The translations under genes were made by a program, and so were the position numbers. This document shows, piece by piece, positions 2,398-12,133 of a stretch of 20,148 bases of DNA. The notes under the pieces are model-generated. The model worked only from the letters and a program-made list of their open reading frames with translations, was not told where the DNA came from and did not search any database. The DNA is from a virus (lineage: Duplodnaviria > Heunggongvirae > Uroviricota > Caudoviricetes), in IMG/VR virus record IMGVR_UViG_2541047958_000001, positions 1-20,148 of that record; one strand, written 5' to 3'. How positions within the stretch are numbered: position 1 is the stretch's first letter; every line of letters starts with the position of its first letter.

Positions 2398-3561
2398 TTA
2401 CACATCATTAGTACCTTCCTTATTTTTTGACTGGGACAAATTTGGGACCGATGGGTTCAGGATCGAGTCTATTTGCCGTGCGTGTTCGGTAAGGTGATTA
2501 GGTGCAAGGTGAGCATATCGACGAACCATTTCGATAGACTCCCAGCCTCCCATTTCCTGTAACACTGACAACGGGACTCCGGCTTGAACCAGCCAACTTG
2601 CCCAGGTGTGTCTCAAGTCGTGAAATCTGAAATCATCAATACCAGCCCGTCTCAGCGCCGCTTTCCAGGCTGTGTTTGCGTCATACCGCATCTTCCTTAC
2701 TGTTGGCGCTTTCGTTCCGTCTGGTTTGGTACAGCTTTCCTTGTACACAAATACCCAACGGTGATGATTCCCGATTTGTTTTTTCAATACGCGACATGCA
2801 GTATCATTCAGCGCAACGCCGATTGCGCGGTTTGATTTACTCTCTTCCGGGTTTATCCATGCCACCCGGCGCTGCATATCTATTTGTTGCCATTCAAGGT
2901 TGATGATGTTCGAGCGTCTTAAGCCTGTTGCCAGTGCAAATTCAACAACAGACTTTAATGGCTCCGGACATTCATCAATCAGCCTTTGTGCTTCATGGGG
3001 CTCCAGCCAGCGGATCCGTTTATTCTTTGGTTGAGGCACTTTAATAATTGGTGCCTTATCCAGCATTTTCCATTCACGCTCTGCGGCTCTTAGTAGGGCT
3101 TTTATAAATGAAAGATGCGTAGCCTTCGTTGCAACAGACGCTGGTTTTGGCGTGTATTCTGGAACAGGTTTCCCTTTTTTTCTGCATGCTTCTTCCCTGA
3201 GTTTCCAGTTTTCCTCATTACGCCGGTTCGTCATTTTCTGCATTGCTGAATAAATTTTTGATTCAGTAATGTCTCTTAGTTGCATTCCTGCGAAATGTTG
3301 AAGCCAGAACCCGATCCGGCTTTTGTCATCGTCCAGTGATTTTTTATGTGCTTTCTCTTCAAGCCACCTGACACACGCTTCCTCGAACGTTATATCAGGT
3401 ATTTCACCAAGTTTGCTGACCCGCCATGCTTCAGCCTTTAGCTTGTCATGGAGTTCTGTCGCCTGCCTTTTGTCCTTTGTTCCAAGAGACTGTTTAAATC
3501 TTTTACCGTTCGGCAATGTGAAACTGGCGTACCATATTTCACCTCTGCGGAAGAGTGACAT
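2398..3561 (-). CDS. int: Phage integrase, P22/lambdoid type (tyrosine recombinase)
   Basis: 387-aa ORF with HDLRH box and RYAH catalytic tyrosine region; closely resembles the P22-family integrase as I recall it; 3' end abuts the tRNA-Thr att core, as expected for attL-int. Confidence 0.92.
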
Positions 3562-4304: not shown

Positions 4305-4613
4305 CTTTCATTAATCCCTGAATTGTTGGTTAATACGCTTGAGGGTGAATGCGAATAATAAAAAAGGAGCCTGTAGCTCCATGATGATTTTGTTTTTCAT
4401 GTTCACCGTTCCTTAAAGACGCCGTTTAACATGCCGATCGCCAGGCTTAAATGAGTCGGTGTGAATCCCATCAGCGTTACCGTTTCGCGGTGCTTCTTCA
4501 GTACGCTACGGCAAATGTCATCGACGTTTTTATCCGGAAACTGCTGTCTGGCTTTTTTGATTTCATAATTAGCCTGACGGGCAATACTGCGAAGGGCGGG
4601 TAATGACTCCAAC

Positions 4614-5117
4614 TTATTGATAGTGTTTTATGTTCAGATAATGCCCGATGACTTTGTCATGCAGCTCCACCGATTTTGAGAACGACAGCGACTTCCGTCC
4701 CAGCCGTGCCAGGTGCTGCCTCAGATTCAGGTTATGCCGCTCAATTCGCTGCGTATATCGCTTGCTGATTACGTGCAGCTTTCCCTTCAGGCGGGATTCA
4801 TACAGCGGCCAGCCATCCGTCATCCATATCACCACGTCAAAGGGTGACAGCAGGCTCATAAGACGCCCCAGCGTCGCCATAGTGCGTTCACCGAATACGT
4901 GCGCAACAACCGTCTTCCGGAGCCTGTCATACGCGTAAAACAGCCAGCGCTGGCGCGATTTAGCCCCGACGTATCCCCACTGTTCGTCCATTTCCGCGCA
5001 GACGATGACGTCACTGCCCGGCTGTATGCGCGAGGTTACCGACTGCGGCCTGAGTTTTTTAAATGGCGGAAAATCGTGTTGAGGCCAACGCCCATAATGC
5101 GGGCGGTTGCCCGGCAT
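4614..5117 (-). CDS. insB: IS1 InsB (expressed as InsAB' by -1 frameshift)
   Basis: 167-aa ORF matching the IS1 transposase catalytic part; overlaps insA in the -1 frame. Confidence 0.93.
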
Positions 5118-5311
5118 CCAACGCCATTCATGGCCATATCAATGATTTTCTGGTGCGTACCGGGTTGAGAAGCGGTGTAAGTGAACTGCAGTTGCCATGT
5201 TTTACGGCAGTGAGAGCAGAGATAGCGCTGATGTCCGGCAGTGCTTTTGCCGTTACGCACCACCCCGTCAGTAGCTGAACAGGAGGGACAGCTGATAGAA
5301 ACAGAAGCCAC
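5036..5311 (-). CDS. insA: IS1 InsA
   Basis: 91-aa [46 protein letters not shown]... (zinc finger plus HTH), canonical IS1 InsA. Confidence 0.93.
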
Positions 5312-5818: not shown

Positions 5819-6495
5819 CGCCATTGCTCCCCAAATACAAAACCAATTTCAGCCAGTGCCTCGTCCATTTTTTCGATGAACTCCGGCACCATCTCGTCAA
5901 AACTCGCCATGTACTTTTCATCCCGCTCAACCACGACATAATGCAGTCCTTCACGCTTCATACGCGGGTCATAGTTGGCAAAGTACCAGGCATCTTTTCG
6001 CGTCACCCACATGCTGTACTGCACCTGGGCCATGTAAGCCGACTTTATGGCCTCGAAACCACCGAGCCGGAACTTCATGAAATCCCGGGAGGTAAACGGG
6101 CATTTCAGCTCAAGGCCATTGCCGTCACTGCATAAACCATCGGGAGAGCAGGCGGTGCGCATACTTTCGTCGCGATAGATGATCGGGGATTCAGTAACAT
6201 TCACGCCGGAAGTGAATTCAAACAGGGTTCTGGCGTCGTTCTCGTACTGTTTTCCCCAGGCCAGCGCCTTAGCATTAACTTCCGGAGCCACACCGGTGCA
6301 AACCTCAGCCAGCAGGGTGTGGAAGTAGGACATTTTCATGTCAGGCCACTTCTTTCCTGAGCGGGGCTTTGCTATCACGTTGTGAACTTCTGAAGCGGTG
6401 ATGACGCCGAGCCGTAATTTGTGCCATGCATCATCCCCCTGTTCGACAGCTCTCACGTCGATCCCGGTACGCTGCAGGATAATGTCCGGTGTCAT
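5815..6495 (-). CDS. exo: Lambda-type exonuclease (Red alpha, Exo), 226 aa
   Basis: Protein [40 protein letters not shown]... is essentially lambda Exo along its full length (from memory). Confidence 0.95.
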
Positions 6496-7277
6496 GCTGC
6501 CACCTTCTGCTCAGTGGCTTTCTGTTTCAGGAATCCAAGAGCTTTCACTGCTTCGGCCTGTGTCAGTTCTGACGATGCGCGAATGTCGCGGCGAAATATC
6601 TGGGAACAGAGCGGCAATAAGTCGTCATCCCATGTTTTATCCAGGGCGATCAGCAGAGTGTTAATCTCCTGCATGGTTTCATCGTTAACCGGAGTGATGT
6701 CGCGTTCCGGCTGACGTTCTGCAGTGTATGCAGTATTTTCGACAATGCGCTCGGCTTCATCCTTGTCATAGATACCAGCAAATCCGAAGGCCAGACGGGC
6801 GCATTGAATCATGGCTTTATGCCGTAACATCCGTTTGGGATGCGACTGCCACGGCCCCGTGATTTCTCTGCCTTCGCGGGTTTTGAATGGTTCGCGTCGG
6901 CATTCGTCCATCCACTCGGTAACGCAGATCGGATGATTACGGTCTTTGCGGTAAATCCGGCATGTACAGGATTCATTGTCCTGCTCAAAGTCCATGCCAT
7001 CAAACTGCTGGTTTTCATTGATGATGCGGGACCAGCCATCAACGCCCACCACCGGAACGATGCCATTCTGCTTATCAGGGAAGGCGTAAATTTCTTTCGT
7101 CCACGGATTAAGGCCGTACTGGTTGGCGACGATCAACAATGCGATGAACTGCGCATCGCTGGCATCACCTTTAAATGCCGTCTGGCGAAGAGTGGTGATC
7201 AGTTCCTGTGGGTCGACAGAATCCATGCCGACACGTTCAGCCAGCTTCCCAGCCAGCGTTGCGAGTGCTGTACTCAT
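6492..7277 (-). CDS. bet: Lambda-type single-strand annealing protein (Red beta, Bet), 261 aa
   Basis: Protein [66 protein letters not shown]... matches lambda Bet (from memory); 4-nt overlap with exo. Confidence 0.95.
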
Positions 7278-7282
7278 CCGTT

Positions 7283-7579
7283 TTATACCTCTGAATCAAT
7301 ATCAACCTGGTGGTGAGCAATGGTTTCAACCATGTACCGGATGTGTTCTGCCATGCGCTCCTGAAACTCAACATCGTCATCGAACGCACGGGTAATGGCT
7401 TTTTTGCTGGCCCCGTGGCGTTGCAAATGATCGATGCATAGCGATTCAAACAGGTGCTGGGGCAGGCCTTTTTCCATGTCGTCTGCCAGTTCTGCCTCTT
7501 TCTCTTCACGGGCGATCTGCTGGTAGTGACGCGCCCAGCTCTGAGCCTCAAGACGATTCTGAATGTAATAAGCGTTCAT
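7283..7579 (-). CDS. gam: Gam (RecBCD inhibitor), short 98-aa GamS-type form
   Basis: ATG at 7579 with AGGAG SD gives [60 protein letters not shown]..., lambda GamS-like. The upstream in-frame extension (GTG at 7618) does not resemble the lambda GamL N-terminus. Confidence 0.85.
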
Positions 7580-7654
7580 GGCTGAACTCCTGAAAATGGC
7601 TGTGAAAATATCGCCCACGAAATGCCAGGCTGATTAGGAAAACAGGAAAGGGGA

Positions 7655-7945
7655 TTAGTGATTCAGGCCGTTACCGCGTCCGTCGAGAAAAACTTCCACG
7701 AGCAAATCACGGGTATAAGTGCGCTCGATGCCGCGATGCAGATAAAGCCGTCCGCGTAAATTAGCTGATGCAGTCCAGGTACCATCTTTGTGTTTGACCA
7801 GCATTCCTGGCATGACCGCACCTCGATTAACGGTCTGCGTTCCATAATGTTGATGAACCATAAAAACTCCTGCCCGTAAGCTGGGCTGCTGAACATATAG
7901 AGACTTCTGCGCGTATTCAGGCGGTGGATGGCCGCCGGTTGTCAT
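7655..7945 (-). CDS. Hypothetical 96-aa protein, first ORF downstream of the pL-like promoter (N position)
   Basis: ATG at 7945; weak GAGG 10-11 nt upstream; no arginine-rich N-terminal motif; an alternative overlapping 77-aa ORF (7663-7896) exists in another frame; coding status uncertain. Confidence 0.35.
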
Positions 7946-8099
7946 AACTAAGCCGCCTCGTTGAAGCGACTAAGGTATGAAATGTTGAGTTAATTTCAGC
8001 TGGTCACACCGACGTTCACGCGTCCGTTTCACCCCTCGCACTCCCCGAAGCCTGCTGAAATTCAAACTGCGGATCTAAGCGGTCATCGCAACGGTGAAT

Positions 8100-8230
8100 C
8101 AGGTAGTTGCCGTATCGTTGTGTTGTTGCGATGAACTTATTTAAAACTATAGTTGTTTTATCGTCAACAACAAAAGTTGTTTTATTGGTTGTTTTAGATA
8201 TAACTGGTTGTATTTAGGATGGATTTATTT
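8100..8230 (-). promoter_or_regulatory. oL/pL-like region: array of GTTGTT/AACAAC operator half-sites with a leftward TTGACG-17 nt-TTAAAT promoter-like element
   Basis: At least six GTTGTT/AACAAC half-sites, including the inverted pair AACAACAAAAGTTGTT; the same half-site appears in the oR palindrome at 10000-10024. Minus-strand -35 TTGACG (8167-8162), 17-nt spacer, -10 TTAAAT (8144-8139). Coordinates in this stretch could not be cross-checked against an ORF. Confidence 0.4.
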
Positions 8231-8307
8231 TGTGACTTGCATCGCACAGCGATAACTGAAGCGAGGTCGTGGTGGTTTTTTGAACGGTTTGTGTGATGAG
8301 GGGAGGC

Positions 8308-8335
8308 AAAAGAAAACCCGGCACGACGGCCGGGG
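8308..8335 (-). terminator. Intrinsic terminator immediately 3' of the 287-aa gene
   Basis: Minus-strand hairpin CCCGGC-CGUCGU-GCCGGG followed by UUUUCUUUU, beginning 4 nt after the stop codon at 8339-8341. Confidence 0.55.
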
Positions 8336-8338
8336 AAA

Positions 8339-9202
8339 TCATTTCGCATCTACAATAAATAACCTGTTTATCTGGCCTTTTTTAACAGTAGCCTTTGCGG
8401 TTATAGTGAATACTGCAGATGGATCACCTTTGGTTGATATATATGCACTAAGAGCTCTAATATACGGGTTATTCTTCTTTCCTGCAGCTGGATCGCTAAT
8501 TTCAGCAGTGATTCTCTTTTTTGAGTCATCACCATCTAAAATTATTTTAGCTGTCATATTTTGTGCATCAAATTCTGTAAGAAAAGCACGATACTCACGA
8601 AGACCGAGAACTTCATCATCATCAAGCCTATCAATTTCAGCTTTATCTCTCTCGTTAACTTTTAGAAGGCAGCCGTCAACATTTGTTGCAACACTTATCT
8701 GATCGCAAGTATTACCAATAGGTGATACTGCCTGCCTTACAGAGGGGCGAAGCTCTACAGCCATTCGGTCAATCAAAGAGATCAACTTATCAATGGTTCC
8801 AGCATCCTTGTTTCCTAGTGCCTCTATGGCCTTTTCAAGTGACTGCTGCAAAGCTTTCATTTCATCTTTCTTGTTAGAATTTCTCGCAAAAATATATTGT
8901 AGTATTGCGCCAAGTATAGTTGCGGCGATCCCCGAGAACAACTGGTTCTGAGTGGCGAAGTTAAGAACTGCTTCAAGAGTAAAGCAGTTAGCTTTTGCTT
9001 CGCGTGCGTAAACCTTAACTTCCTGATAATTAATGTATTTACTATATTTTTGTGTAACAGAGAAAGAAGCTGCTGTTGAGAGAACTTTAGAAAAACCCTT
9101 TAGGGATTCTCCTAGGCAGTTCAAATCTATTTCATGATTTAAAGCATCTTTTCCGTCATACCTAAGAGAGATTTTTATATCCTGTAAAGCGTCACAATCC
9201 AT
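8339..9202 (-). CDS. Orphan 287-aa protein of unknown function in the immunity-region moron slot (rexAB-equivalent position)
   Basis: Co-oriented with and 66 bp downstream of cI, followed by its own terminator and then oL/pL; clearly more AT-rich than the flanking phage genes; one central hydrophobic helix ([18 protein letters not shown]) followed by a charged coiled-coil-like segment; no family recognised. Confidence 0.7.
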
Positions 9203-9268
9203 AAATCGCTCTCGTCTAATTCTAATTAAATTTACTATCCCCTAAACGACTCATCAGCACAGTACTGA

Positions 9269-9958
9269 TTATCCATGTTTCCTGTACGTCTGGGGCATGC
9301 TCCCAATAACCTTACCGAAGATGAACACCCGGTTCATCTCGTCTTTCTCGATCGGGTCCCACGGTGAGTAGCTCTTGTTATCAGAGATAACCAGCAGCTT
9401 ATCCTTCATCATTTGCAGGCGCTTTACATGGGCTGTGTCGTCGTACAGAAACGCATAGATACCATCACCGTCGAAAGATTTAACCGTGATATCAACGAAC
9501 AGCAGATCACCTGGTTCGATCGTTCCTGACATGCTGTCACCACGCACGTTAATGATGCGGATATTTTCCGCCTTCCTACCATCGAACATGTGACGAGCAT
9601 CGTCAAACGAGTACTCAACCGAGCGTAGAACTTCTACAAACTCACGGTTGATGACTCCCGGCCCAGCACTGACTTCTATATCAAGAACGTCAATCTTGAA
9701 GTATTTGGAATGGCTGACAGTTGATTGTATTGGTTGCACTGTACTGTCTGACATATTTCCAACGCCAGAAGATAACCATTCTGCGCGCACACCCAAAGCG
9801 TTCGCGATCTCCACGATTTTAGTTGTTTGATTAGCTTTCCCTGTTTCGATTTTCTGAATAGCAGCCTGGCTAACCCCGACCAAATCCCCAAGCGCCTTTT
9901 GTGTAAGGCCTCGCGCTAATCTGGCTTCTTTAAGTCTTTCTGAGAGTGTTGTTTTCAT
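9269..9958 (-). CDS. cI: CI-type prophage repressor (HTH_XRE N-domain plus S24 LexA-like autopeptidase C-domain), 229 aa
   Basis: HTH LTQKALGDLVGVSQAAIQKIETGK; Ala-Gly cleavage site in EVSAGPG; Ser nucleophile in RGDSMSGT and Lys in HVKRL. Start taken at ATG 9958 (MKTTLSERL...), because the ORF-track extension to 10024 runs through the operator/promoter region. Confidence 0.85.
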   Translation of the reverse strand: MKTTLSERLKEARLARGLTQKALGDLVGVSQAAIQKIETGKANQTTKIVEIANALGVRAEWLSSGVGNMSDSTVQPIQSTVSHSKYFKIDVLDIEVSAGPGVINREFVEVLRSVEYSFDDARHMFDGRKAENIRIINVRGDSMSGTIEPGDLLFVDITVKSFDGDGIYAFLYDDTAHVKRLQMMKDKLLVISDNKSYSPWDPIEKDEMNRVFIFGKVIGSMPQTYRKHG

Positions 9959-10062
9959 AGTCCAAATGTACAACCAAGGTTTTATTCCATCAAACGAAAA
10001 TGGTTGTTGACTAAAAACAACCATAGTTTTAATCTTGATTCAAATTAACCACGGAGGTTGTT
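9959..10062 (+). promoter_or_regulatory. oR/pR/pRM-like divergent control region
   Basis: Perfect 9-bp-arm inverted repeat ATGGTTGTT-N7-AACAACCAT (10000-10024) overlapping a rightward promoter: -35 TTGACT (10007-10012), 17-nt spacer, -10 TAATCT (10030-10035), then GGAGG SD (10053-10057) 5 nt before the cro ATG. Confidence 0.6.
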
Positions 10063-10293
10063 ATGAACCCAGCTATCAAAACAGCGATCAATATCGTTGG
10101 TTCACAAAAGAAACTGGGCGCTGCTTGCGAAGTTTCACAGCAGGCCGTCTATAAGTGGCTTCACAACAAAGCAAAGGTATCCCCTGAACATGTCGGCAGC
10201 ATTGTTACGGCTACTGGTGGAGTAGTGAAGGCATACCAGATTCGCCCGGATCTTCCGAAGTTGTTTCCACACACCGAAAAGAACGCAGCTTAA
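10063..10293 (+). CDS. cro: Cro-like HTH regulator (76 aa)
   Basis: Divergent from cI across the operator region; helix-turn-helix (KKLGAACEVSQQAVYKWLHN); strong SD. Confidence 0.8.
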   Translation: MNPAIKTAINIVGSQKKLGAACEVSQQAVYKWLHNKAKVSPEHVGSIVTATGGVVKAYQIRPDLPKLFPHTEKNAA

Positions 10294-10305
10294 ATTTCCA
10301 TTTCA

Positions 10306-10318
10306 CGCTCTTTAACAA
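10306..10318 (+). promoter_or_regulatory. boxA-like element (CGCTCTTTAACAA) in the cro to cII-position intergenic region; nutR-like
   Basis: Matches the boxA consensus CGCTCTT(T)A and the rrn-type extension AACAA; I could not find a convincing boxB hairpin downstream. Confidence 0.3.
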
Positions 10319-10362
10319 TAAGCAATCAACTTAACAGTCAATTCAAACTAAAGGAGTCAATT

Positions 10363-10902
10363 ATGCAACCACTTACATACCAACAGACTAGCGGATTTAG
10401 CCCGACTGCGGTGATAAATCGTTCTCAAACAAAACAGGTGCCAGGCCACGAAAAAATCCGTGATGCCGTCCGCGCCTGGTCGGCTGTAGATAATCAGGAT
10501 GTCGTTGCCACACTCATTGTGAATGAGTATCGGGAGCAGGGCGGCGGCACCATCGATTTCCCTGATGATGTCAGCCGTGCACGCCAGAAGCTGTTCCGCT
10601 TCCTCGATAACAAATTCGATTCTGAAAAATACCGAAATAACGTGCGTGAACTGACCCCGGCAATTCTGGCGGTACTACCGCTGGAATATCGCGGTTACCT
10701 GGTTGAGCAGGATAGCTTCATGGCTAGGTTGGCTGAAATGGAAAAGGAACTCAGTGAGGCAAAACAGGCTGTCATTCTCAACGCACCACGCCACCAGAAA
10801 CTGAAGGAAATTAGTGAAGGTATTGTGTCGATGTTTCGTGTGGACCCAGATCTGGCTGGTCCATTGATGGCGATGGTTACTACCATGCTGGGGGCGATAT
10901 GA
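10363..10902 (+). CDS. CII-position regulator, 179 aa (CII/CP76/YdaT-like)
   Basis: Position immediately after cro, AAAGGAG SD; family assignment by position and size only, from memory. Confidence 0.5.
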   Translation: MQPLTYQQTSGFSPTAVINRSQTKQVPGHEKIRDAVRAWSAVDNQDVVATLIVNEYREQGGGTIDFPDDVSRARQKLFRFLDNKFDSEKYRNNVRELTPAILAVLPLEYRGYLVEQDSFMARLAEMEKELSEAKQAVILNAPRHQKLKEISEGIVSMFRVDPDLAGPLMAMVTTMLGAI

Positions 10903-10988: not shown

Positions 10989-11918
10989 ATGGCAAACACT
11001 GCTGAGATATTCAATTTTCCAGTGCCGGATGCGGCACAAAAGGAGCCGCGCGTGGCAGATCTCGATGATGGTTATACGCGCATTGCAAATGAGTTGCTGG
11101 AAGCTGTGATGCTGGCCGGATTAACACAGCACCAGCTTCTGGTCTTCCTAGCTGTCATGCGCAAAACATATGGCTTTAATAAAAAACTGGATTGGGTGAG
11201 CAACGAGCAACTGTCCGAATTGACCGGGATATTGCCGCACAAGTGTTCTGCTGCAAAAAGTGTTCTGGTAAAGCGTGGGATTCTTATTCAGAGCGGGCGG
11301 AATACCGGCATTAATAATGTGGTCAGTGAATGGTCAACATTACCCGAATCAGGTAAGAAAAATAAAGTTTACCTGAAAGAGGTAAATTTACCTGAATCAG
11401 GTAAAAAAAGTTTACCCAAATCAGGTAAAGACGTTTACCCGAATCAGGTAAACACAAAAGACAAACTAACAAAAGACAATATAAAACCTTTTTCGTCCGA
11501 GAATTCTGGCGAATCCTCTGACCAGCCAGAAAACGACCTTCCTGTGGAGAAACCAGATGCTGCAATTCAGAGCGGCAGCAGGTGGGGGACAGCAGAAGAC
11601 CTGACCGCCGCAGAGTGGATGTTTGACATGGTGAAGACCATCGCGCCATCAGCCAGAAAACCGAATTTTGCAGGGTGGGCTAACGATATCCGCCTGATGC
11701 GTGAACGTGACGGACGTAACCACCGCGACATGTGCGTGCTGTTCCGCTGGGCATGCCAGGACAACTTCTGGTCCGGTAACGTGCTAAGTCCGGCCAAACT
11801 CCGCGACAAGTGGACCCAACTCGAAATCAACCGTAACAAGCAACAGGCAGGCGTGACAGCTAGCAAACCAAAACTCGACCTGACAAACACAGACTGGATT
11901 TACGGGGTGGATCTATGA
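10989..11918 (+). CDS. O: Replication initiator O (lambda O family)
   Basis: N-terminal domain DLDDGYTRIANELLEAVMLAGLTQHQLLVFLAVMRKTYGFNKKLDWVSNEQLSELTG resembles the lambda O DNA-binding domain; ori iterons embedded in the linker-coding part; ATG at 10989 with GAGGA SD (the ORF track extends upstream to 10899). Confidence 0.85.
   Translation: MANTAEIFNFPVPDAAQKEPRVADLDDGYTRIANELLEAVMLAGLTQHQLLVFLAVMRKTYGFNKKLDWVSNEQLSELTGILPHKCSAAKSVLVKRGILIQSGRNTGINNVVSEWSTLPESGKKNKVYLKEVNLPESGKKSLPKSGKDVYPNQVNTKDKLTKDNIKPFSSENSGESSDQPENDLPVEKPDAAIQSGSRWGTAEDLTAAEWMFDMVKTIAPSARKPNFAGWANDIRLMRERDGRNHRDMCVLFRWACQDNFWSGNVLSPAKLRDKWTQLEINRNKQQAGVTASKPKLDLTNTDWIYGVDL
11340..11495 (+). repeat. Replication origin: five iterons TTTACCYRAAWSAGGTAA (starting 11340, 11368, 11387, 11411, 11434) followed by an A-rich tract
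   Basis: Five direct repeats, each an internal inverted repeat TTACC...GGTAA, spaced 19-28 bp, inside the O coding sequence, followed by ACACAAAAGACAAACTAACAAAAGACAATATAAAACC. Confidence 0.75.
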
Positions 11919-12133
11919 AAAACATCGCCGCACAGATGATTAACTTTGACCGTGAGCAGATGCGTCGGATCGCCAACAACATGCCGGAACAGTACGACGA
12001 AAAGCCGCAGGTACAGCAGGTAGCGCAGATCATCAATGGTGTGTTCAGCCAGTTACTGGCAACTTTCCCGGCGAGCCTGGCTACCAAAGGTGGGAAGCTG
12101 GAACTGACCATCACTGAACTGGGAGATGAATGA
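11915..12133 (+). pseudogene. Remnant of replication protein P (first ~57 codons lambda P-like, then 15 unrelated codons and stop)
   Basis: MKNIAAQMINFDREQMRRIANNMPEQYDEKPQVQQVAQIINGVFSQLLATFPASLA matches the lambda P N-terminus (from memory); lambda P is about 233 aa and the ORF here ends at 72 aa. Confidence 0.6.

Follow-up and report, generated by a model that had tools for sequence, protein, structure and literature searches.

The early-left interval 7580–8307 was analysed in a stretch of 20,148 nucleotides (nt) from a Caudoviricetes virus (IMG/VR record IMGVR_UViG_2541047958_000001, positions 1 to 20,148; this whole stretch is called the window). The window is a lambdoid prophage or phage, and the features in question are a leader RNA and an open reading frame (ORF) of 96 amino acids (aa), identified below as kil, which lie between the promoter pL and gam. 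The minus-strand order is cI-like repressor, DUF7946/DUF7947 gene, operators and pL, the leader/kil interval, gam, bet and exo; the plus strand carries a YdaS-type cro, a YdaT/CII-like gene, an O-like replication gene and a Q-like antiterminator. The closest records over the interval are Escherichia phages PhiR34_1, PhiR5_1, Turner, 4A7 and Perceval (91–99% identity). Coordinates refer to the minus strand unless marked (+).

Identity and start of kil

The ORF first called at 7655–7945 was matched over residues 20–96 by PHROG 294 ('Kil protein for bacterial septation inhibition', E = 1.2e-38) and over residues 29–96 by NCBIfam PRK11354 ('FtsZ inhibitor protein', E = 4.4e-17, 61.9 bits); a local Pfam search of the 96-aa ORF gave no match, and the Pfam domain PF27398 (precomputed) is listed on many related proteins from the protein-database search. 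Alignment gave 42% identity to phi80 Kil, 85% to HK225 Kil and 78% to Kil of Klebsiella phage KO-TP1, all three of which begin at the residue equivalent to Met29; the Kil motifs M-x-x-QHYGT...PGM...YLH...GxGN are kept, as are the start M-(V/I)-x-QHYGT and the length of about 70 aa. The ATG of Met29 (7861) has the Shine-Dalgarno sequence GGAG (7870–7867) five bases upstream, and exactly this 68-aa form is annotated in E. coli chromosomes by the NCBI Prokaryotic Genome Annotation Pipeline (PGAP) as WP_000233576.1, 'phage encoded cell division inhibitor protein'. In the polymorphism set (89 haplotypes from 166 viral, phage and metagenome copies) a coding signature is present from 7861 onward: 19 of 68 third positions are polymorphic versus 3 of 136 first and second positions (p = 8e-8). 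On profile matches, alignment, PGAP annotation and polymorphism, the gene is assigned as a Rac/phi80-type kil (FtsZ-inhibitor family) of 68 aa, 7655–7861, with Met29 as its real start. The 75-nt spacer between kil and gam (7580–7654) is 97.6% identical with that of Shiga toxin (Stx) phages having a lambda-type 47-aa kil at the same position, so that the gene, by its family not of the lambda type, is placed in the same slot.

The sequence-only reading had recognised no kil here and had offered the 96-aa protein as a possible divergent early regulator; the homology search overturned both statements. Its leader of about 190 bp (7946–8138) becomes an untranslated leader of about 270 nt (8132–7862) because kil starts at 7861. 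The 96-aa frame and the overlapping 77-aa frame of the ORF list (7663–7896) do exist as described and are the sole ORFs of at least 40 aa between pL and gam; the weak Shine-Dalgarno and the missing arginine-rich N-terminus were also read correctly, ATG 7945 having a distant GAGG only. No family match (Pfam, PHROG) was obtained for the 77-aa frame, and the polymorphism pattern favours the kil frame over it. The original finding is largely explained as an ordinary Kil gene with a mis-called start.

The 28 codons upstream of Met29 are in frame with kil by accident and belong to a conserved RNA cassette that is non-coding (7862–7979, described below). The extension 7919–7862 has no codon-position bias (1 of 20 third positions polymorphic versus 1 of 38 first and second positions), and the usual stop is missing from the window lineage through a short deletion, which fuses the cassette ORF in frame to kil. 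That the 96-aa protein, or a longer one, is nevertheless the real product, a Kil with a proline-rich N-terminal extension MTTGGHPPP..., was weighed and is considered improbable. None of the 45 window-type viral contigs in the first retrieval interrupts the ORF, the 96-aa form is annotated in several phage records, and an ORF from ATG 7945 is retained in many cassette variants; against this, the ATG and its sole Shine-Dalgarno-like motif lie inside a hairpin of −15.8 kcal/mol kept by covariation, third positions of the extension are not relaxed, one haplotype has a stop at 7913 within it, the equivalent ATG in other phages opens short ORFs that are frameshifted or is itself missing, and all Kil homologues start at Met29 with a good Shine-Dalgarno.

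The leader RNA: promoter, constraint and the conserved cassette

The pL-like promoter (8139–8167; −35 TTGACG at 8167–8162, 17-nt spacer, −10 TTAAAT at 8144–8139) was read from the sequence as a sigma-70-like site, in agreement with the position of about 8140–8167 given for it earlier; the consensus promoter scanner did not list it among its sites. Transcription would start near A8132. In relatives this leader is joined, at or close to 8131, to three unrelated types of operator/promoter, and this common junction supports a transcript beginning there. A promoter-like site on the opposite strand, 8126–8153 (+) (TTGCGA, 16-nt spacer, TATAGT), overlaps pL and the start of the leader; it is probably due to chance, 7 such sites being found in the region versus 8.7 expected.

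Purifying selection acts on the leader: in 8070–7862 polymorphism affects 17 of 209 sites, versus 15 of 39 four-fold degenerate sites in kil (p = 6e-6), about a five-fold difference. This version of the interval was found in 2207 of 5426 complete E. coli genomes (41%). The earlier suggestion that the region is degenerate is contradicted by the polymorphism counts and by compensatory covariation in hairpin A of the cassette. In its stronger form, that the interval is a non-functional deletion scar, it would account for a layout resembling phi80, HK639 or HK225 minus the N/put region and the first terminator, and for a kil start fused in frame to upstream sequence; with a leader five-fold less polymorphic than adjacent neutral sites, a hairpin maintained by compensatory changes, and relatives with the same interval whose records are complete phage genomes (in several cases with the isolation host named), it is highly improbable. 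Constraint and prevalence together argue that the interval is no such scar.

The RNA cassette (7862–7979; also at 2510–2615 in contig L006, 2504–2640 in L007 and 2504–2640 in L008, which is HK225) makes up the 3' half of the leader. Its core consists of ATG 7945 and the following ACAACCGGCGGCCATCCACCGCC. Exact-pattern scans placed it in more than 120 IMG/VR contigs, before many different downstream genes; it is also present in phi80 (directly after the annotated tL1A, downstream of N), in HK639 (a putL user), in HK225 and in Enterobacter and Klebsiella phages. The usual order is intrinsic terminator, CAUACC, hairpin A, UUAUG ACAAC, hairpin B, a variable segment, GCGCAGAAGUCUUGUAUUAACCGUUC, hairpin C, and the Shine-Dalgarno and start codon of the next gene. 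The cassette usually follows the first terminator of the pL operon, in phages with N (phi80), with put (HK639) or with neither.

Hairpin A (7943–7979; −15.8 kcal/mol, z = −4.83) is a real RNA structure. Its closing helix CAUA/UAUG pairs the AUG at 7945–7943, and the stem covers the GAGG as well. At least seven unrelated stem sequences occur among 83 distinct variants, yet 99.2% of pair cells are standard (shuffled partners, 85%; slid partners, 30–45%); the covariation score is 0.383 versus 0.126 for shuffles (0 of 500 reach 0.383) and 0.02–0.056 for slid controls; compensatory changes were found at seven pairs, in 12–34 sequences each.

Hairpin B (GGCGG-CCAUCCA-CCGCC, 7920–7936; −8.9 kcal/mol, z = −2.54) lies inside the near-invariant core AUGACAACCGGCGGCCAUCCACCGCC. 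An identical 23-nt core was present in 99 of 121 cassette copies retrieved through a different anchor; the remaining 22 include four kinds with frame-shifting deletions of 1–2 nt right after the AUG and one without any AUG. The HK639 annotation lists hairpin B as a terminator, owing to a U-run that comes after it in that phage; no U-run follows hairpin B in the window. The 3' part of the cassette (7862–7919) comprises the conserved GCGCAGAAGUCU, hairpin C (7886–7872; GC/CG swaps among variants) and the kil Shine-Dalgarno. The reading frame of the conserved GAAGUCUUGUAUUAA changes from one cassette variant to another, and the short ORF opened by the cassette AUG is not conserved as coding. A polyproline leader peptide starting MTTGGHPPP was considered for this mini-ORF and rejected on account of the AUG locked in hairpin A, the frameshifted and AUG-less variants, and the differing frames of the conserved nucleotides downstream.

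The cassette is absent from Rfam 15: no relevant match at E ≤ 10 was obtained in window positions 7400–10600, and none on the cassette in phi80, HK639, HK225 or contig L018. A search of the window for an antisense partner of the invariant core gave chance-level 10-mers only. The cassette is a plausible new RNA motif.

The pL-proximal 147 nt of the leader (module 1, 7986–8132) are CA-rich at the 5' end and could form a three-way junction at 8065–7989. Module 1 is confined to the window phage family and is at least 96% identical wherever found, behind the three promoter types; no divergent homologue was found in phages or in species-representative genomes, and alignment with the leaders of phi80, HK639, HK225 and HK022 is at chance level beyond the first ~20 nt. 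The folding check proposed for the leader gave a divided answer: negative z-scores were obtained for the candidate junction, with its two adjacent stem-loops (z = −2.97), and for cassette hairpins A and B, and module 1 as a whole shows no excess folding energy (z = +0.7). Among the common single-nucleotide polymorphisms (SNPs) of the junction, those at 8056 and 8027 keep pairing; 8048 (U>C) and 8032 (G>A) break inner stems with no compensatory change. An apparent U-A to C-G covariation of 8048 with 8027 was discarded, the two positions not being in one helix; it reflects linkage and not compensation.

Module 1 overlaps an arginine-rich mini-ORF of 31 aa, LNFSRLRGVRGVKRTRERRCDQLKLTQHFIP (7970–8065; start TTG 8065, alternative start GTG 8032 with GGGGAG 8 nt upstream). 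The earlier ORF inventory between pL and gam is complete at 40 aa and above, and this ORF (8065–7970) sits under its size threshold. The stop TAG at 7972–7970, inside CATACCTTAG, is CAG in most relatives, which merges the arginine-rich ORF, the cassette ORF and kil into a 139-aa frame, annotated in Perceval as 'Kil'. The leader might in principle encode an arginine-rich micro-protein like the RNA-binding arm of N, of 20–31 aa in the window or as a 128–139-aa Kil fusion in relatives with CAG at 7972. The peptide KRTRERRCDQ presumably resembles the lambda N motif TRRRERRAEKQ; the GTG has its GGGGAG and is ATG in 12 haplotypes; SNPs seen in at least two haplotypes within the GTG-frame ORF (8032–7970) are four synonymous and two missense, the start (GTG/ATG) and stop (TAG/CAG) also varying; and the frame is included in the 139-aa annotation of Perceval. 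Set against these are the lack of relatives outside the family (PHROGs, tblastn and a search of 5.8 billion proteins), a codon-position bias that is not significant (4 of 20 at position 3 versus 3 of 40 at positions 1 and 2, p = 0.21), 16 places in the window where six-frame translation gives comparable arginine-rich frames, no boxB-like partner hairpin, no counterpart of the N parts that bind NusA and RNA polymerase, and the stop/sense polymorphism at 7972, by which product length is not conserved. The mini-ORF is probably not a gene, and an N-like micro-protein is very unlikely.

At +5 to +16 of the predicted transcript lies CAACAACACAAC (8117–8128), a perfect 12-nt complement of GcvB nt 72–83 (R1 seed) and the sole GcvB complement of at least 10 nt in the window. 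The 5' end of the pL transcript could accordingly be read as a GcvB target or sponge that links induction to amino-acid metabolism as AgvB does; the site includes most of the published GcvB target consensus CACAACA, and prophage anti-GcvB RNAs are a precedent (PMC4104026). Much of the predicted duplex energy is accounted for by the low-complexity, CA-rich composition of the site (3 of 200 shuffles equal it). The L053/L125 leader variant is without the complement, whose sequence is also similar to the operator half-site AACAAC nearby; lysogens keep pL repressed, and the first start codon is 270 nt away, which makes classical translational repression unlikely. Such a role is regarded as improbable, and the complement would be at most analogous to AgvB. 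That the leader is AgvB itself was ruled out, AgvB being an RNA of 51–60 nt located at the PR' moron site (PMC4104026).

Antitermination and the proposed reading

No N homologue was found for any ORF in 7580–8140 (Pfam, PHROG, NCBIfam). Kil was the only family-matched ORF in the interval, and a scan of the left-arm small ORFs gave no cIII match; no boxA within 3 mismatches and no boxB-like hairpin with a GNRNA loop were found in the leader. The earlier statement that N, cIII and nutL are missing between pL and gam is thereby borne out, and with it, given that absence, N-independent early-left expression.

A put-like RNA in the leader had been the other proposal. The known put sites of HK022 and HK639 give no Rfam match at E ≤ 0.01, and a covariance model was therefore built from HK022 putL and putR, HK639 putL and six variants from fetched loci (conserved GAACGG...CGUCGG...CGGCAAU, two stems; HK639 and phi80 features were taken from GenBank annotations). 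Control put sites from HK022, HK639 and four further contigs, one of them a diverged copy outside the training set, scored 49.5–103 bits. With filters off, the best hit in the window was 8.1 bits (E = 0.78) at 5079–5159 (+), with none in the leader; seven other window-type loci gave no match. A put RNA of the HK022/HK639 family is thus contradicted. In contigs L018 (put at 6154–6260, 103 bits) and L021 a bona fide put is followed after ~15 nt by the cassette, with no gene or terminator between, which is the same layout as that of module 1 and the cassette in the window.

Module 1 could still be a new cis-acting antiterminator RNA, an analogue of put that carries RNA polymerase through terminators such as the one at 4380–4366. 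It occupies the exact position of put as in L018 and L021 (pL, put, 15 nt, cassette), begins at the transcription start behind three promoter types, is under purifying selection, contains the three-way junction with two adjacent stem-loops (z = −2.97), and has a good terminator downstream. Opposed to this are the empty covariance search together with local alignment to put at chance level, the whole-module fold of z = +0.7, the uncompensated disruption of predicted inner stems by 8048 U>C and 8032 G>A, which are the most informative of the common SNPs, and the absence of a second copy in the right operon. An antiterminator of this kind is judged unlikely.

A strong intrinsic terminator stands immediately before the cassette in phi80, HK639, HK225 and most contigs; it is missing in the window, where no terminator-like site was found in 8132–7862. 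The interval is best read, with good though not full confidence, as the untranslated leader and kil of the pL operon in an N-less, put-less lambdoid prophage very common in E. coli, the leader RNA likely acting in cis. Relative to phi80, HK639 and HK225, the lineage would lack all that those phages have between the opening ~20 nt of the pL transcript and the cassette: nut or put, the genes that come first, and the intrinsic terminator. On the simplest reading no antiterminator would be needed, because the terminator preceding the cassette in relatives is absent here; RNA polymerase from pL would reach kil, gam, bet and exo unaided, as in lambda nin deletions on the right arm, and these genes probably need no antitermination. 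The leader RNA (module 1 and cassette) would most likely act in cis on the delayed-early message, candidate roles being message stability or processing, protection from Rho over the untranslated stretch of 270 nt, and dosing of toxic Kil; it is probably not an RNA polymerase modifier. A cis-acting role is plausible.

Several points weigh against this assignment of the interval. The curated PRK11354 cutoff of 92 bits is not reached by the window Kil, which on that score is a Kil-family relative and not an equivalog of Rac KilR. The start site of pL is predicted, and so is the lack of termination within the leader. The good intrinsic terminator further down the operon (4380–4366) means that distal genes may still need a readthrough mechanism, and a model of a passive leader does not account for the strong constraint on module 1. 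A perfect rrn-type boxA (12/12), GCTCTTTAACAA, is present in the right operon at 10307–10318 (+), 14 nt after the cro stop; it is the sole zero-mismatch match in the window, has an identical context in 67 of 121 relatives with enough flank, and hints at a Nus-dependent system, on the right arm at least. It is not followed by a boxB-like hairpin, and the pL leader holds no counterpart; it may recruit host Nus factors without a phage N.

The remaining interest lies in the constrained leader RNA, whose 3' half is the widespread, covarying and uncurated cassette and whose 5' half has no known relatives. It is possible, though doubtful, that the cassette represents an undescribed cis-regulatory RNA of lambdoid early-left operons that marks the delayed-early start in the presence of N, of put or of neither, and that module 1 is a second new leader element, such as a polymerase modifier of the put kind or a sponge that binds a small RNA of the host. 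Of the complete E. coli genomes, about two in five contain an early-left operon of lambdoid type that has no N, nut or put, yet has a constrained leader of 270 nt. The structured cassette is a candidate new RNA element, found across phages with different antitermination systems and absent from Rfam; its role could show how prophages dose a toxic division inhibitor and recombination genes, and could add a cis-regulatory element to the lambda paradigm. Several phage records that list a 96-aa or 139-aa 'Kil' should have their annotation changed to the 68-aa form.

Neighbouring features and comparison with known systems

The cI-like repressor (helix-turn-helix and S24 peptidase) is encoded at 9269–10024. 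The DUF7946/DUF7947 gene (PHROG 5147, 8339–9202) lies between the repressor and pL and has its own terminator at 8334–8317; relatives have HipA/HipD-annotated, SIR2-family or other genes in this slot, which looks like a hotspot and is presumably the equivalent of the rexAB position in lambda. Downstream of pL, gam (7283–7579) directly follows kil; bet, of the RecT family (6492–7277), and then exo come next. A transposase-like ORF (PHROG 720, 4614–5117) was noted inside the left arm, and two tandem integrase-family genes (1173–2276 and 2398–3561) at the left end. On the plus strand the gene after the O-like one, 11915–12133 (+), 72 aa, matches a P-like helicase-loader profile over no more than its first 55 positions out of 236; the replication module seems to be without a full helicase loader, as reported for some lambdoid phages (PMC12315714). 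In HK225 an Rfam match to isrB, an Hfq-binding small RNA, was recorded at 3413–3510 of contig L008 (38.2 bits versus a gathering score of 35), between Gifsy-like ORFs and recE.

The Kil of the window is comparable with phi80 Kil and Rac KilR in length (68 aa versus 69 aa in phi80 and 73 positions in the PRK11354 profile), in the conserved motifs and in the pL-operon position, and the window has a YdaS/YdaT-type cro–cII pair on the other side; Rac presumably carries ydaS/ydaT. It differs in sequence (42% identity to phi80 Kil; 61.9 bits versus the 92-bit NCBIfam cutoff) and in standing directly upstream of a lambda-type gam–bet–exo, where lambda and Stx phages have the unrelated 47-aa lambda Kil.

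The early-left region of phi80 (pL-nutL-N-tL1A-...-kil) shares with the window the first ~20 nt of the transcript, ATCG(C/A)AAC...CGA, a homologous cassette after tL1A, and a kil of the same family; the window is without the ~700 nt that hold nutL, N and tL1A, and has 125 nt of unrelated sequence instead.

HK022 (putL and putR) and HK639 (putL) likewise have no N and carry a conserved RNA module from the pL start, and put abuts the same cassette in L018 and L021. The leader of the window differs from them in having no match in sequence or structure, no significant global fold and no second copy in the right operon. With the N-independence of lambda nin deletions the window would have in common that no terminator precedes the delayed-early genes, so that no antiterminator would be needed; nin is a laboratory deletion on the right arm, whereas the arrangement in the window is on the left arm, natural and widespread.

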